Source: Clostridia bacterium (lineage in GTDB: Bacteria > Bacillota > Clostridia > Oscillospirales > CAG-272). From it: a DNA stretch of 64,000 bases. The notes under the pieces were generated by a model. The model was not told where the DNA came from and did no database searches. It saw only the letters and a list, made by a program, of their open reading frames with translations. The position numbers and the translations under genes are program-made. Location of the stretch: positions 18,271 through 82,270 of the forward strand of contig JAFVZL010000039.1 of assembly GCA_017508195.1 (NCBI GenBank). Reading direction: 5' to 3'. This document shows, one piece after another, positions 497 through 27,362 of this stretch. The stretch's first letter is position 1, and each line of letters begins with the position of its first letter.

Positions 497-655
497 TGGG
501 CTGTGGTATTTGGGCATAACCGAATAAAAAACACCGGGGTATTGTTTAGGCAGTACCTCGGTGTAAATTTTGCGCTATAAAAAAGTTAAGGTTGAAAACC
601 TTTGGTTTTCTTCTTTTATGGTGTTTTTATTCTACCGCCGTTTCCTCGCTTGGTG
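497..655 (+). repeat. Copy 1 of a ~150-bp dispersed intergenic repeat (GGCATAACCG box + long-loop hairpin + AAGGTT-GAA-AACCTT hairpin)
   Basis: Near-identical to 848..1004 by direct reading. Hairpin ACACCGGGG(531-539)/CCTCGGTGT(556-564) has one G:T pair that is acceptable only on the + strand. Confidence 0.8.
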
Positions 656-847
656 TACACCGCGCACGAACAAAGCGATAGGCAAACCTTTAGCAGCACG
701 GGTCAAGCAAAGGGCGAAACGGAGCTTTGATCCGTTTCGATTTGCTTTGCAAATTGCCCCTTTGTTTGTCAAACATTGTTAAAGACAAAGCCACACACCT
801 CTTGCTTGTCAGCCGACGGTTTCTGCACCAAATCCCTTTGCCCCGAG

Positions 848-1004
848 GGGCTGTTTCATTTTGGGCATAACCGAATAAAAAACACCGGGGTATTGTTTCG
901 GCAGTACCTCGGTGTAAATTTTGCGCTTTAAAAAGCTTAAGGTTGAAAACCTTTACTTTTTTTTAATGATGCTTTTATTCTACCGCCGTTTCCTCGCTCG
1001 GTGG
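848..1004 (+). repeat. Copy 2 of the ~150-bp dispersed intergenic repeat
   Basis: Same order of blocks as 497..655 (TTTTGGGCATAACCGAATAAAAAACACCGGGG...CCTCGGTGTAAATTTTGCGC...AAGGTTGAAAACCTT...TTTATTCTACCGCCGTTTCCTCGCT) with a few substitutions and indels. Confidence 0.8.
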
Positions 1005-17890: not shown

Positions 17891-18039
17891 TTCTCGCCAA
17901 ATTATTTTAGAGCGATGCTCGGGAAGGCAGATTTGGATGAGGATCGAGGTTATTAGTAGCGACGCTGTAGAAAACTACTGCAAGCTACTAAAACATCGAT
18001 AGAGGCTTGCCTCGTCCTCGCCGAATATGCCAACCGAGA

Positions 18040-20316
18040 TTACTTGAGAAGATTTTTGGGCTTCCTTATCTTATTCAGCTGCTTATTGATCTTAAGAAGC
18101 TCTTCCTTTGTGAAGCTGACGTTTGCCATGCCCATCATGCTCGAGAGACGGAGAACGGTGAAGCCGCCCATCATCTGGATAAGACCCTTACCCATCTTGA
18201 AGCCTGCTACCTCGAAGCCGCCTTCCTTCTTCTCGCCCTTCTTCTCGCCCTTCTTGGACATCTTCTTCTTTAAAGAAAGGCCGAAGCGCATGAACCAGAG
18301 CTTGCCCCAGAAGCAGCTCATGATATCACCGAGCTTATCGTTAAGGGAGAATCTTCCCTCGGGAGCGTCGACGTCGAACCAGTTAAGAACGGCGCCGGTC
18401 TCCTTAAGAACGTAATCCATATTTCTCTCTTCTACCTTGCGGATGGTGCTCTCGTCACGGTACTCGCCCGCGATAGCAACGAGCCGGCTCTCGCCGACGT
18501 TCGGTACGTCAAAGTAGAAGAAGTGATCGGGAGCCTGCTTCTTTCCGATGGACTCACCGTTGAGGAAGAGCTCGACCTCGGGAAGGTTCGAGTAAACGGT
18601 AACCTTTGTAACGTCCTCAACGCGGTCTACGTATCTCTTGCCGCAAATGTGTACGAAGGGATCGTCGGAGAGCCATGCCTTGTAAGCATAGAAGGAATCC
18701 TTCTTATACTTTCTGTCCATGGTGATAAGACCCTTATGGTTCTGTCCGTTCTCGCCGCCCTCTGCTCTCGCATCTGCGCCGAAGTCGAACATATTCCATA
18801 CGTGGGTAGCCCAAAGGTAGGGGCGTGCCTTTATCTGCTTGATAAGCTCCTCGTGGTAGTATGCCTGATATTCCTCGGTATAATCGCCCTGAACGGGATC
18901 GGAGGTATGCCAGTTAAGCGCCTCGCAGCCGTACTCGGAGCAGCCGATCGGAATTTCGGGATGCTTCTTATGGAACTCGTCGAACCAAGGACCGTTCATA
19001 GAAGTATCTCCGCCGTACCAGCCGAAGTAGTGGTTATACGATACTACGTCGGGGATCTGTACGTAGGGATCATCCATCGAGCACATAGAAACGCAAGCGA
19101 TGGTAGTAAGACGGGTCTTATCGAGCTCGTGAACGAGATCGTTAAGAATGTTGTGATTCTCGAGAAGGTCGGGAGTCGAACCGCTGATGGTGATCTCGTT
19201 GGAAAGACCCCATACTACGATAGAGGGGTGATTGTAATTCTGAATTACAAGCTCCTTCATCTGGTTGACGGTGTTCTCGCGGCCGCCGGGCATATGGCGA
19301 GAGATATAGGGAATCTCCGCCCAGATGACCTGACCGTACTCGTCACAAAGATCGTAGAAGTACTCATCGTGCTGATAGTGAGCAAGGCGGATTGTGTTGG
19401 CGCCCATCTCGCAGATGAGCTCCATATCCTCCTTATGATGCTCGGGAAGAAGTGCGTTACCGATGCCGAGTCTGTCCTGGTGACGGGATACACCGCGGAG
19501 GGGGTACTCCTCACCGTTGAGGATAAAGCCGCGGTCGGGGTTGATCTCGAAGGTACGGCAGCCGAATCTCGAGGATACCGCATCGATCTCCTCACCGTCT
19601 CTTACGATAGCCACCTTAGCGGTGTAGAGGTAAGGATCGCGGCGGCCGTGCCAGAGATGAGCCTCACCGATAGCGAGAGTCGCACGGGTCTCGGACGAGG
19701 TTGCGGATGCTACCTCGGCACCCTCCTTATCAAAGACGGTGTAGGATACAACATCTCCGTCCTTAAGTGCGGTAACGTAGGTCTCGATCTCAACGTCCCA
19801 GCCGCTCTCACCTTTCTTAGGAGTGATAACAACGCCTCTGCCGCCGTAGTACTCGAGGTCGAAGTGTGTCTCACTGACACAAACTATATTCACGTCACGG
19901 TAAAGACCGCCGTAGAAGGTAAAGTCAGCCATCTGCGGATATACAGTCTCGTTCGCGCTGTTGTCAACGATAATCGAAAGGTCGAGGGTGTCGCCAACGT
20001 ACTCTGTAACGTCGACGCGCCAGGTGGAGTATCCGCCGTCGTGGCTTGCGAGCTCCTTTTCACCTGCGTATACCTTAGCAGATGAGTTTGCGCCCTTGAT
20101 CTCGAGGAAGTAACGGTCAGCTAGAGGGAGCTCGGATCTTACTACCTTCTTTGCATAGAGGCAGGGGCCGCGGAAGTAATCGTTTCCACCGTCGTGACCG
20201 TCCTCGGCATTCCATGTGTGAGGAAGGTTAACGGTTACCGCGCCCTCGGTTGCCATGGGGTCGGAGCAATTCTTAATGAATCTCCAGCCCTCGTTTATGT
20301 TTAAAATATTTCTCAT
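18040..20316 (-). CDS. glycoside hydrolase family 2 (beta-galactosidase/beta-glucuronidase family) with unusual Lys/Met-rich C-terminal tail
   Basis: N-terminal INEGWRF, NTIRLAHYQ, WGLSNE (acid/base Glu context) and CSEYGCEA (nucleophile Glu context). Start set at ATG 20316 (AAAGGAG SD). Confidence 0.85.
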   Translation of the reverse strand: MRNILNINEGWRFIKNCSDPMATEGAVTVNLPHTWNAEDGHDGGNDYFRGPCLYAKKVVRSELPLADRYFLEIKGANSSAKVYAGEKELASHDGGYSTWRVDVTEYVGDTLDLSIIVDNSANETVYPQMADFTFYGGLYRDVNIVCVSETHFDLEYYGGRGVVITPKKGESGWDVEIETYVTALKDGDVVSYTVFDKEGAEVASATSSETRATLAIGEAHLWHGRRDPYLYTAKVAIVRDGEEIDAVSSRFGCRTFEINPDRGFILNGEEYPLRGVSRHQDRLGIGNALLPEHHKEDMELICEMGANTIRLAHYQHDEYFYDLCDEYGQVIWAEIPYISRHMPGGRENTVNQMKELVIQNYNHPSIVVWGLSNEITISGSTPDLLENHNILNDLVHELDKTRLTTIACVSMCSMDDPYVQIPDVVSYNHYFGWYGGDTSMNGPWFDEFHKKHPEIPIGCSEYGCEALNWHTSDPVQGDYTEEYQAYYHEELIKQIKARPYLWATHVWNMFDFGADARAEGGENGQNHKGLITMDRKYKKDSFYAYKAWLSDDPFVHICGKRYVDRVEDVTKVTVYSNLPEVELFLNGESIGKKQAPDHFFYFDVPNVGESRLVAIAGEYRDESTIRKVEERNMDYVLKETGAVLNWFDVDAPEGRFSLNDKLGDIMSCFWGKLWFMRFGLSLKKKMSKKGEKKGEKKEGGFEVAGFKMGKGLIQMMGGFTVLRLSSMMGMANVSFTKEELLKINKQLNKIRKPKNLLK

Positions 20317-24698: not shown

Positions 24699-25340
24699 AT
24701 GCCTACCCAGAATTCTTACAAAATCAGAACAAAGAGAGCAAACCTCTTACTCAGAGTATCGAAGGGGCACTTTGCAACCAACCACAGCCACATCAATTAT
24801 TACATCGACGTAACTACGCAGAAGATGCGTCTGTCCGAGGCACAGGCGGTTGCCGAGGAGCTCGTATCCTACTACAATACAAATACGATCATCGACGCCA
24901 TTCTATGCCTCGACGGTATGGAGGTTATAGGAACCTGTATCGCAAACGAGCTTACCAAGGGCAGCTTCATGAACCTTAACGCGCATCAGACCATATACGT
25001 AGTAACACCGGAGCGCACCTCGGGCAGCCAGATCATTTTCCGTGACAGCACGCGCCAGATGATAGAGGGTAAACACGTGCTCATTCTCGCGGCATCTGTT
25101 ACAACAGGCTACACCACAGGCTCGGCTATCGAGGCTATCAACTACTACGGCGGTCACGTTGCAGGAATCGCTTCGATATTCTCGACGGTTGACGAGTGCG
25201 GCGGATATCCCGTACATTCCGCTTTCGATACCGCAGACCTTGACGGATACGTTACGTATCCTGCTCACGAGTGTCCGTGGTGTAAGGCGGGAGAGCGCAT
25301 TGATGCGCTGGTTAATGGCTTCGGTTACTCCAAACTTTGA
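24699..25340 (+). CDS. type-I phosphoribosyltransferase-fold protein with degenerate PRPP loop
   Basis: PRTase-like core VLILAASVTTGYTTGSAI, where Ala-Ser replaces the usual acidic pair. C-terminal HECPWCKAGE. Start at ATG 24699 (GGAAGGAG SD). Confidence 0.55.
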   Translation: MPTQNSYKIRTKRANLLLRVSKGHFATNHSHINYYIDVTTQKMRLSEAQAVAEELVSYYNTNTIIDAILCLDGMEVIGTCIANELTKGSFMNLNAHQTIYVVTPERTSGSQIIFRDSTRQMIEGKHVLILAASVTTGYTTGSAIEAINYYGGHVAGIASIFSTVDECGGYPVHSAFDTADLDGYVTYPAHECPWCKAGERIDALVNGFGYSKL

Positions 25341-25383
25341 GTGGTTGGCGCATTTTGGTATAACCGTAAATGGAATATTTATT

Positions 25384-25411
25384 GCGGGGCACTTATGTGC
25401 CTCGCTTTTTT
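25384..25411 (+). terminator. rho-independent terminator (inside repeat unit 1) for the 24699 gene
   Basis: GCGGGGCAC-TTAT-GTGCCTCGC followed by T6. The G:T pair is compatible with the + strand only. Confidence 0.75.
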
Positions 25412-25625
25412 CTTTCTACTTACCATATCAATAGGGTTGGAAAACTGCGTTTTCCTCAATTTCATTTTAATTCCATTTACTATTTCCGTTTTCCTCCTTC
25501 GCGGTACCTTTGTACCGCTCTCAGTCGGAACAACGAAAATTTCTCCTCAAAATCCCCTCAACCACTCCTCTCTATCCTCTCTTTGTGGTTGGTGCATTTT
25601 GGCATAACCGTAAATGGAGAATTTT

Positions 25626-25664
25626 AGGAGTAAGGGGCATTTGCTTCTTGCTCCTTCTTTTTTC
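25626..25664 (+). terminator. terminator-like hairpin at the equivalent position of repeat unit 2
   Basis: AGGAGTAAG ... CTTGCTCCT (one T:G pair) followed by TCTTTTTTC. The sequence is unrelated to the unit-1 hairpin but sits at the same place in the unit. Confidence 0.55.
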
Positions 25665-25812
25665 GTGGCTAAGGGCGGAAAACTCCGTTTTCCATTTTTA
25701 TTATTCTCCATTTATTATTTCCGTTCGCTTACTCTCGCTGTACCATCGTACAGCTTCGGCGCGCGAAACGAAAATTTCTCCTCAAAATCCTCTCAACCAC
25801 ACCTCTCTCTTT

Positions 25813-25970
25813 CACGTTCCCCAACGGGGAACATATCGCGTTTCGCGCCGCGAAACATATCGCTCCGCCACAGGCGGAATATCGCGTCACCCCCGGTGAC
25901 ATATCGCGCTTCGCGCAAGCGAAGCATCATAACTGCTGCCCGCGGCAGCGCTGCTTCGCAGGTCGAAGCG
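25813..25970. repeat. hairpin-train element, family 1 (copy A): about 7 short GC hairpins; ATATCGC(G) occurs four times, separating the first five
   Basis: ATATCGC(G) occurs at 25833, 25857, 25879 and 25901 (spacing 24/22/22 nt). Each interval holds a perfect 6-7-bp stem with a 3-4-nt loop. Confidence 0.8.
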
Positions 25971-25971
25971 C

Positions 25972-26013
25972 AAAAAACCACGGCTGAGTTTTTCTTCTCA
26001 GCCGTGGTTTTTT
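25972..26013. terminator. bidirectional rho-independent terminator
   Basis: A6-CCACGGCTGAG ... CTCAGCCGTGG-T6. It serves the minus-strand MFS gene (stop at 26040) and any plus-strand transcript through the repeats. Confidence 0.85.
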
Positions 26014-26039
26014 ATTGTATTTTTGCATTTTTGTAAATC

Positions 26040-27362
26040 TTAGTTTGCAATATCCGCTTCTACGGCATCATTTTCTGTCGATTTTGCGCTCTCGCGTGCG
26101 AGCACCTCTATTTGGGTTTTGCGAGCCGAAGAAATGACGAATTGCACGATAACGATAACTGCCACCATCGCGACTGCGGCGGCAATGAAGCCGACGTTGT
26201 AGCTTTTTGTGATATCGTAGCAAAGATTGAACGCAGGGGAGCCGAGGGCATAGCCCGCGGTGTTCACCGAAACGAAGATACCGAGAACCTTGTCAAAGGA
26301 TTTTGCACCGAACAGATCGGATGCGTATATCGGCAGCATGATCGTTTCAAGCGGAAGTGCGAAGGATGAAATCGCAGAGTATACAAATGCAAGTGCAATA
26401 CCTAAGGGTGATGGGTCGATAAATACGAGTATCAGCGACGATATAATTGAGACACCGATACACCATGATGTGGTGGCTCTGAGTCCTGCCTTATCGTAAA
26501 TAACGCCCGTTAAAAACTTCGCGGCTGCGAGCACCAACGAATGGAAGCTGAGTATAAGAGATATCGTATCCGCATCGATATTCACGTCACGGTAATGCGC
26601 GGCAGTTACACCCGACAGTCCCTGAAGAATAAAGCCTGAGATAAAAATGCATACGAGAATTCCCCAGAAATACTTCTTGTGAAGTGCCTCCTTGAAGCTG
26701 ATACCGACCCAATCCGTACCGCGCTTTTTCTTTGCGCCCGATTTTGCCGGCACGGCATCTATCGGCTCACGCTTGGGGTCCTTAAAGAATATGAGAAGAA
26801 GAACGCCAACTACTGCAAGCACACAGGCAACGACGATATAAGCGGTTCTGTATCCCTCCGCGCCCGATTCGATGATCGGAGAAATGATCTGTATCGCTAT
26901 CGCTCCGCCGATACCGTTAGAGGCGAGCACCGCACCCATGATCGTACCTTTATTTTCCTTACAAAGGCGCGTTACAACGTATCCGACCATCGTGGTCGTG
27001 GTCCATGAAAGACCGATGCCGAGGAACACACCCGCGAGGTAAATAAGCCACACGTTAGGTGCGAACGCATACAGAAGTGTCGATATGATAAGCGAGCCGA
27101 AGCCTGCTACGATAAGCTTCTTCGGTCCGAATTTTGCAACGAGGAAGCCAAAGAACACGTTTATTATAGCAGTAGATACGTATCTGCAGCTGTCGGTGAT
27201 CGAATACACGCTTCGGTCGATTCCGAGCGCGTTGCTTATAGGAACGATATATAAGCTCTTAGGCGACGAGCAAAAGCCGAGCGCCACAAGAACCATCAGG
27301 AAGCAAAGTCCGATAATGACCCATTTGTAATCGAAGCGCTTCCTTTGATCCGAATTATTCAT
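26040..27362 (-). CDS. MFS transporter (440 aa)
   Basis: About 12 hydrophobic segments with a central basic loop (KDPKREPIDAVPAKSGAKKKRG). Subfamily not assignable by eye. Confidence 0.75.
   Translation of the reverse strand: MNNSDQRKRFDYKWVIIGLCFLMVLVALGFCSSPKSLYIVPISNALGIDRSVYSITDSCRYVSTAIINVFFGFLVAKFGPKKLIVAGFGSLIISTLLYAFAPNVWLIYLAGVFLGIGLSWTTTTMVGYVVTRLCKENKGTIMGAVLASNGIGGAIAIQIISPIIESGAEGYRTAYIVVACVLAVVGVLLLIFFKDPKREPIDAVPAKSGAKKKRGTDWVGISFKEALHKKYFWGILVCIFISGFILQGLSGVTAAHYRDVNIDADTISLILSFHSLVLAAAKFLTGVIYDKAGLRATTSWCIGVSIISSLILVFIDPSPLGIALAFVYSAISSFALPLETIMLPIYASDLFGAKSFDKVLGIFVSVNTAGYALGSPAFNLCYDITKSYNVGFIAAAVAMVAVIVIVQFVISSARKTQIEVLARESAKSTENDAVEADIAN

Follow-up and report, generated by a model that had tools for sequence, protein, structure and literature searches.

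A modular, genus-wide family of folded intergenic repeats starting at the stop codons of unrelated genes in uncultured ruminant-gut Clostridia

Interspersed repeats that fold have been described in a few model bacteria in culture, and what they do is still under debate. The bcr1-bcr18 elements of the Bacillus cereus group, ERIC and Correia are foldable interspersed repeats of 100-200 nt from Firmicutes and Proteobacteria; some of them are transcribed and affect neighbouring mRNAs, and those whose mobility is known carry conserved terminal inverted repeats and produce target duplications. According to the accessible part of Croucher et al. 2011 (PMC3049150), the BOX, RUP and SPRITE repeats of Streptococcus pneumoniae are enriched between convergent genes and have been proposed to stabilise 3' ends. 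In Escherichia coli, REP elements located at most 15 nt from a stop codon hold up the terminating ribosome and reduce expression (Liang, Rudd and Deutscher 2015, Mol Cell 58:431, as reported in the accessible part of PMC12306157); the same text counts 446 of 4,072 REPs (about 11%) as stop-proximal with RepRanger and 260 of 496 in the 2015 study. The present work is centred on two tandem structured units at positions 25341-25812 of a 64,000-nt stretch of DNA (the window) from a Clostridia bacterium, whose genome assembly (G000) comprises 2.02 Mb in 54 contigs and is 88% complete. These units turn out to be members of a new family of modular repeats of about 230 nt, spread throughout a genus, which belongs to uncultured ruminant-gut Clostridia known from metagenome-assembled genomes (MAGs) of the Oscillospiraceae type.

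A preliminary description of the locus, made from the window alone, had treated the units as an RNA following one particular gene, and had taken absence of the unit from the rest of the genome as an argument against it. The unit is far from absent: BLAST of unit 1 against G000 revealed copies on many contigs, and four rounds of nhmmer (E up to 1e-3) gave 58 matches, 14 of them full length. The idea of an RNA specific to this locus has to be abandoned, given that the pair is one array of a dispersed multi-copy family found behind many unrelated genes. The 58 matches group into 34 arrays of one to three units, in which long forms, short forms and truncated units are mixed; all copies are intergenic, and many are partial, mostly consisting of the 3' half. 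A covariance model of the fold (R1) yields 39 matches in the same genome. Within the genus, R1 matches were obtained in 26 of the 36 searched genomes, with numbers going from none to 43 or more per genome under strict filters, and many copies lie at contig ends, as expected of repeats. Weak matches were also present in 2 of the 24 searched genomes from other families of the order (G038 and G043, with 5 and 17 matches and best E values of 4e-5 and 2.9e-6, respectively), a hint that distant relatives of the family may exist outside the genus. Besides, a degenerate pattern of one arm of the fold (arm B) was found in 74 stretches of species-representative genomes, all of them MAGs from the guts of ruminants or other herbivores, labelled Clostridia, Eubacteriales, uncultured Ruminococcus or Oscillospiraceae. 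A phage origin was not indicated, the same pattern matching only 1 stretch in 2.9 million viral contigs. No Rfam 15 family matches at the gathering threshold anywhere in the window, and a search of 25200-26100 with E up to 10 gave no match near threshold within the units (sbrA, for example, reached 24.7 bits against 45). No description of such a repeat was found in the literature on Ruminococcus or the rumen, and broader literature searches led only to general work on repeats.

Each unit carries a 5' box and a 3' block, with three hairpins (P3, P4 and P5) at equivalent positions between them, as had been noted from the sequence. The 15-nt core of the box, ATAACCGTAAATGGA, occurs in the whole window only at 25360 and 25604 (0.12 occurrences expected by chance), and the 24-nt block, AACGAAAATTTCTCCTCAAAATCC, exactly twice, at 25532 and 25767 (0.00 expected). 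The tandem arrangement also stands, with a period of 244 nt and cores slightly unequal in length (Table 1), the start of unit 2 being corrected from 25586 to 25585. Both units can be aligned over their whole length with about 73% identity (BLAST), and because of this low identity the pair is not reported by Tandem Repeats Finder. The contrasts drawn between the hairpins are equally valid: the stems of P3 are unrelated in sequence in the two units, although a T-run follows each of them, and P5 differs by a double change from G-C to U-A. Two long-range helices have to be added to these hairpins. The box pairs with the block, forming P1 (GTGGTTGG/TCAACCAC) and P1b (ATTTTG/CAAAAT), and P2 is produced by GTAAATGGA and TCCATTTAC, the latter about 100 nt downstream; therefore, each unit folds as one closed domain. 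The resulting structure, which is strongly supported, is a three-way junction composed of the closing stems P1/P1b, arm A (the long-range P2 enclosing the hypervariable P3 and P4) and arm B (P6 tipped by P5). Short forms of the family consist of P1/P1b and arm B, with no arm A. The best-conserved helices (the 3' arm of P2, P4, P5, P6 and the 3' arm of P1) are all located 3' of P3, and there are conserved unpaired stretches before P4 (AAGGTTG), between P2 and P6 (CTAT) and before P5 (TCG). A pseudoknot between AACC (25362-25365) and the GGTT before P4 was considered as a possibility, but the columns barely vary and the pairing is not kept in unit 2. One otherwise typical unit (L061, JAGBCA010000041.1) has a 74-nt GC-rich insertion right behind the 3' arm of P5, which is absent from eight other units aligned with it.

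The compensatory changes that had been seen between the two units are real and extend to the whole family, as shown by the covariance analysis that had been proposed for this locus. In a plain MAFFT alignment of the 14 full-length copies of G000, RNAalifold predicts 52 pairs, 36 of them with compensatory changes. With P1b then added by hand, 88.0% of the cells pair, versus 41.7-50.7% after a shift of the 3' partners by 1-3 columns, double changes occur in 40 of 58 pairs, and none of 500 shuffles matched the observed pairing values. P2 is 98% paired, with 9 of its 11 pairs covarying, P4 is 97% paired, and 7 of the 8 pairs of P1 show double changes. Among 102 distinct sequences of relatives, in an alignment that was fitted to R1 and hence leans towards the model, 91.4% of the cells pair versus 45.9-55.1% after sliding, 39 of 44 pairs have double changes and P4 is 99.5% paired. 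R1 spans P2 to P6 (174 positions) and leaves out P1 and P1b, and P1 was tested separately by an alignment-free comparison of 72 units: flanks of the same unit pair with a mean of -11.8 kcal/mol, and flanks taken from different units with one of -8.3 (p about 9e-14, Mann-Whitney). Thus, the closing stem is copy-specific in sequence and yet complementary.

The position of the units is as regular as their fold. In G000, where genes were called by a crude rule for open reading frames (ORFs), a co-oriented gene is found upstream of 28 of the 34 arrays, and 24 of the 34 have the end of an ORF on the same strand at most 50 nt from their first match. When only the 17 arrays opening with a unit complete at its 5' end are taken into account, 13 lie 8-21 nt from the stop; profile position 1 falls 11 nt inside the unit, therefore P1 starts at the stop codon or a few nucleotides behind it. 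Convergent genes flank 16 of the 25 co-oriented arrays for which a downstream gene was called. For the relatives, the 102 distinct matches were reduced to 69 first units by leaving out 21 shorter than 150 nt, 9 lying behind another unit and 3 with a short upstream sequence. For 62 of these 69 units, an ORF of at least 40 codons, or one still open at the edge of the locus, ends on the same strand within 70 nt, and in 44 of the 62 the stop is located 21-32 nt before the start of the model, which places the start of P1 between about -2 and +9 nt relative to the stop. The mirror-image control, taken at the 3' side on the other strand, gave an ORF end within 70 nt in 25 of 63 cases; these were evenly spread, and only 2 fell in that bin. 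The stop may even be part of the fold: in the case of an RlmL-like gene, the stop (TAA) in G000 is inside the 5' arm of P1, and in G025, the closest relative, the frame runs through P1 and then stops.

According to Pfam, the upstream genes are unrelated to each other. They code for a PfkB kinase, an SDR protein, YebC, PolC, phosphofructokinase (PFK), a class II tRNA synthetase, GH88 and GH2 enzymes, SpoVT, a helix-turn-helix protein, a Met-gamma-lyase-like protein, the RlmL-like methyltransferase and a GT4 protein. In the window, the units occupy a gap of 700 nt between convergent genes, and the gene upstream of them has orthologues in 19 of the 60 searched genomes of the genus. This gene had been labelled as phosphoribosyltransferase-like; its Pribosyltran score (11.8 bits against a cut-off of 26.3, E 0.15) gives a faint hint of such a function and does not sustain the label.

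The view of the units as a + strand structured element behind the upstream gene is maintained on the basis of orientation and stop-codon adjacency, the main argument for the strand being that the co-oriented stop adjoins the 5' end of the element rather than its 3' end. The modelled helices of the window units contain 7 G.T/T.G pairs and 0 A.C, and the 14 copies of G000 contain 56 G.U versus 19 A.C; this asymmetry modestly favours the sense strand. Related to replication, GC skew places 16 arrays as 'leading' and 7 as 'lagging', although it is a noisy proxy (62% of genes agree with the local skew). Five arrays that run against the local skew, the window array included, are still behind a co-oriented gene.

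Taking fold and position together, we consider it probable, with considerable room for doubt, that the family is a BOX/REP-like, mobile and modular 3'-untranslated-region RNA element, and that each unit is the 3' tail of the upstream mRNA, with an inferred function in cis. The unit would be transcribed as the tail of the upstream message, and its compact fold would protect the mRNA 3' end from exonucleases; P3, where it is followed by a T-run, would supply or reinforce termination. P1 would lie within the footprint of the terminating ribosome, and the fold would be opened at each termination event. This opening could couple translation to the fate of the mRNA, as reported for the stop-proximal REP elements of E. 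coli. A bolder version, which we regard as rather unlikely, is that the unit is a translation-sensing RNA device: termination at the upstream stop would melt the whole three-way junction, and translated and untranslated mRNAs would expose different 3' structures, with different outcomes in decay, termination or ribosome rescue. Such a device would be packaged as a mobile cassette attachable to any gene. If this were true, stop-proximal folded repeats would be a general, independently evolved bacterial mechanism and not a curiosity of E. coli. The family is in any case a natural test case for repeats acting on mRNA at translation termination, because its fold is complex and strongly covarying and its position rule is strict (co-oriented, starting at the stop).

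Several observations weigh against the folded-tail reading. The main tension is that efficient termination at P3 would leave the 3' partners of P2 and P1 untranscribed from the upstream gene. Furthermore, a strict finder detects a canonical terminator within 260 nt behind only 7 of the 34 arrays, so the picture of a unit lying between stop and terminator may not hold generally. Tolerance of insertions at such sites in a compact genome could explain part of the stop adjacency, and the recently spread copies are less tightly placed, 8-37 nt from stops. The earlier statement that G:T pairs are tolerated only on the + strand is true for the window units and weak for the family: relatives have 163 G.U versus 117 A.C, one conserved U.G position accounting for 61 and one conserved A.C position (in P5) for 54, and when both positions are left out the counts are 102 and 63. 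Finally, the + strand gives the more stable consensus fold in only 6 of the 14 copies of G000 and 21 of the 81 copies of relatives.

These last two observations, nearly symmetric pair counts and fold energies, would fit a hairpin acting at the DNA level, and they are shared with the main rival of the folded-tail reading, which we judge less probable but serious: the units would be purely selfish, non-autonomous mobile DNA similar to REP or to MITEs (miniature transposable elements with inverted repeats), without any role in host mRNA. In that case, the fold would matter only while the element passes through a single-stranded intermediate of transposition (DNA or RNA), and the position at stops would reflect target choice or tolerated sites. 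The variation in copy number among the species of the genus and the abundance of copies at contig ends are in agreement with it, and so is the uneven occupation of orthologous loci. The orthologue of the window's upstream gene in G025 (85% amino acid identity) has a unit right behind its stop, where the contig ends; in G074 it is followed by three short-form units and in G023 by four units of a related variant, and the remaining orthologues read are followed by plain terminators and have different neighbours. G000 carries units behind YebC, the RlmL-like gene and PFK; they recur behind YebC in 2 of 5 relatives and in 1 of 5 behind the RlmL-like gene, and the PFK site is occupied in G000 only. 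Units at orthologous sites are as different as units at unrelated sites: for the G025 unit behind the RlmL-like gene, the same-site unit of G000 ranks 10 of 14, which provides no orthology signal. Pairs at orthologous sites differ mostly by double changes that keep the pairing (in one example, 12 kept versus 2 single and 3 double breaks, counted in the model-fitted alignment). On the other hand, the copies of G000 are all old (the best pair is 0.88 identical over aligned columns) and nevertheless have kept their pairing. In one MAG, RGIG8981, 99%-identical units occur at four loci with unrelated A-rich upstream flanks, so the spread has been recent in some species and old in others. No target-site duplication is visible at five near-identical copies, whose upstream flanks are A-rich and two of which are cut by locus ends. 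The arms of P1 vary between copies, unlike terminal repeats recognised by a transposase, and it is the 5' end rather than the 3' end that abuts co-oriented stops. No mobilising enzyme emerged from the searches, which covered Y1_Tnp and RVT_1. RVT_1 was not found in G000 (88% complete), and a Y1 transposase was rejected as the mobiliser: no unit lies near either of the two Y1_Tnp genes of G000 (best model score, 8.7 bits); within the genus the domain, present in 9 of 26 unit-bearing versus 2 of 10 unit-free genomes, is not distributed like the units; and of the 8 genomes with at least 20 matches, 5 gave no Y1_Tnp.

Three other explanations have been weighed. According to one of them, the units would serve the upstream gene mainly as stacked intrinsic terminators, with the remainder of each unit as a passenger. 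P3 of both window units consists of a GC-rich hairpin plus T-run, as in intrinsic terminators, most of the 14 full-length copies of G000 have a GC-rich P3 with a T-rich tail (from a reading of the folds), a conserved terminator hairpin is present behind P1, at the 3' end, in one subfamily, and the scarcity of strict terminators downstream of the arrays points in the same direction. However, P3 is terminator-like in only 19 of 81 units of relatives by a comparable test, arm A is missing from the short forms, none of the helices with the strongest conservation and covariation (P2, P4 and P6) belongs to a terminator, and P2 and P1 require sequence located 3' of P3. Termination is thus an optional module and not the core of the family; the series of terminators formerly proposed describes the P3 hairpins of the window and not the family, and as a general explanation it is decidedly improbable. 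It is very improbable that the units are independent functional RNAs with their own promoter (a trans-acting small RNA, a ribozyme or a ligand-binding RNA). The multi-helix junction with its conserved unpaired stretches would suit such a molecule, but no Rfam family is reached at the gathering score, 1 promoter-like site was detected against 1.2 expected, and the family has dozens of members behind unrelated genes, with tandem arrangements and truncations among them. The last possibility is that the units code for a small hydrophobic peptide or extend the upstream protein by read-through; a frame of 88 codons (25341-25607) does follow the TGA of the upstream gene in the same frame. This coding reading is effectively refuted: behind 24 array-bearing genes the median in-frame extension is 14 codons (range, 0-88), a length divisible by three is seen in only 18 of the 79 gap runs between copies, and substitutions follow base pairing. 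The folded 3' tail is the reading that we prefer for the family.

The coordinates of the units, their helices and the surrounding features are gathered in Table 1. CT-rich tails similar to the spacer between the two units are also found 3' of other copies of the family.

Table 1. Units of the repeat family, their helices and neighbouring features in the window
Feature	Position in the window	Strand	Basis or remark
Family copy, 5' three quarters	508..671 (C28:18778-18941)	+	nhmmer; 19 nt behind stop of 1268-aa gene
Second, partial copy of the 508-671 array	860..1003 (C28:19130-19273)	+	nhmmer
Partial copy, arm B/3' half	17927..18049 (C28:36197-36319)	-	nhmmer; overlaps stop of - strand GH2 gene
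Upstream gene, 221 aa	24675..25340	+	ORF list; TGA stop 25338-25340 directly adjoins P1 of unit 1
Unit 1, full-length long form, folded core 225 nt	25341..25565	+	minimum free energy fold; best match of model R1, 152 bits
Unit 1 P1	25341-25348 with 25558-25565	+	
Unit 1 P1b	25352-25357 with 25548-25553	+	
Unit 1 P2	25366-25376 with 25470-25480	+	
Unit 1 P3 and T-run	25384..25411	+	terminator scan; hairpin 25384-25405, GCGGGGCAC/GTGCCTCGC, then TTTTTT; variable module
Unit 1 P4, GGAAAAC-TGC-GTTTTCC	25439..25455	+	conserved (A)AGGTTG directly before
Unit 1 P6	25483-25498 with 25523-25539	+	
Unit 1 P5, GCGGTAC-CTTT-GTACCGC, tip of arm B	25501..25518	+	
CT-rich spacer between units, TCCTCTCTATCCTCTCTTT	25566..25584	+	sequence
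Unit 2, full-length long form, folded core 216 nt	25585..25800	+	minimum free energy fold; model R1, 142 bits
Unit 2 P1	25585-25592 with 25793-25800	+	
Unit 2 P1b	25596-25601 with 25783-25788	+	
Unit 2 P2	25610-25620 with 25705-25715	+	
Unit 2 P3, followed by T-run TCTTTTTT	25626-25655	+	terminator scan
Unit 2 P4, GGAAAAC/GTTTTCC	25677-25693	+	
Unit 2 P6	25718-25734 with 25759-25774	+	
Unit 2 P5, GCTGTAC/GTACAGC	25737-25754	+	
CT-rich tail behind unit 2	25801..25812	+	sequence
Strong intrinsic terminator, 17-bp stem, A-run and T-run	25972..26013	+	closes the convergent intergenic region; context, outside the units
Major facilitator superfamily (MFS) transporter gene, convergent	26040-27362	-	

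From the point of view of annotation, it is important to note that the units break MAG assemblies, many of them lying at contig ends, and that they produce spurious ORFs. In the window, the T-rich units create two of these, 25341-25607 (88 codons, in frame with the upstream gene) and 25614-26036 (140 codons), which gene callers may annotate as hypothetical proteins.

Other repeats were observed close to the units or at equivalent places in relatives. A train of short GC hairpins with a constant ATATCGC linker follows unit 2 at 25813-25970. The units had been said to lead into this train, and they do precede it, but it is a different kind of repeat. On the - strand (25804-25887), it gives a weak match to the Gut-1 RNA motif (RF01706; 29.2 bits against a gathering score of 50), a motif found in uncultured gut Clostridia; this weak likeness concerns only the adjoining train, the units themselves having no Rfam match. 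A similar train with a ATATCGAG linker is present behind the PFK orthologue of G025 (L171). Behind the orthologue of the window's gene in G023 (L141, G023:C19) there are four tandem units of about 92 nt, which have P1b-like ends (ATTTTCGG ... CTCGAAAAT) in common with the family and a different interior; this suggests that they are part of a wider superfamily of stop-abutting tandem folded repeats. Another hairpin, CGTAGGGGAGGATACCATCCTCCCG, occurs several times in tandem behind a PFK orthologue (L173, G035:C117) and is probably another repeat family of the genus. The Y1_Tnp (IS200-like) genes are flanked by AACCAC...GTGGTT hairpins, such as AACCACCAG-N5-CTGGTGGTT, at 1345-1376 and 2038-2069 of L149 (G000:C20) and 532-554 of L150 (G000:C17). 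They possibly represent a REP/RAYT-type or IS200-end arrangement unrelated to the units. The GTGGTT/AACCAC hexamer that these hairpins have in common with P1 of the window looks like a coincidence, because P1 varies between copies.

When compared with the systems described so far, the family is close to several of them and identical to none. As regards integrons, an attC/gene-cassette origin was rejected, given that the genes preceding the units are housekeeping genes scattered over many contigs (no search for an integrase was made). With REP elements and BIMEs it has in common the many extragenic folded copies in gene 3' regions, often in arrays and with a stop-proximal subset, and the roles proposed for REPs are mRNA stabilisation and termination. 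Nevertheless, a REP is a single palindrome of 20-40 bp, whereas the present unit measures 216-225 nt and contains seven helices; 44 of 62 first units start here within about 9 nt of the stop, and no link to a RAYT/Y1 transposase was observed. The bcr, ERIC and Correia repeats differ in that the terminal stem of the present family varies from copy to copy, with no duplication seen at the five near-identical copies. Likewise, the conserved terminal inverted repeats of MITEs are lacking, the ends being complementary within a copy and different between copies. Therefore, size and RAYT link separate the family from REP, and the terminal repeats, which are not conserved, separate it from a classical MITE. 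Another parallel is BOX, which, according to the accessible part of PMC3049150, has a variable number of inner modules between complementary end modules, is dispersed and has been proposed to form stem-loops at transcript 3' ends; the enrichment between convergent genes has its counterpart in the arrays of G000. Complementary ends, variable inner modules and intergenic dispersal make the present family BOX-like in kind, a term that refers here to architecture. The accessible part of the same paper makes no mention of a stop-abutting position rule for BOX, and the family described here is distinguished from it by its host group, by the strong covariation of its helices between copies and by a 5' end placed at the stop codon.

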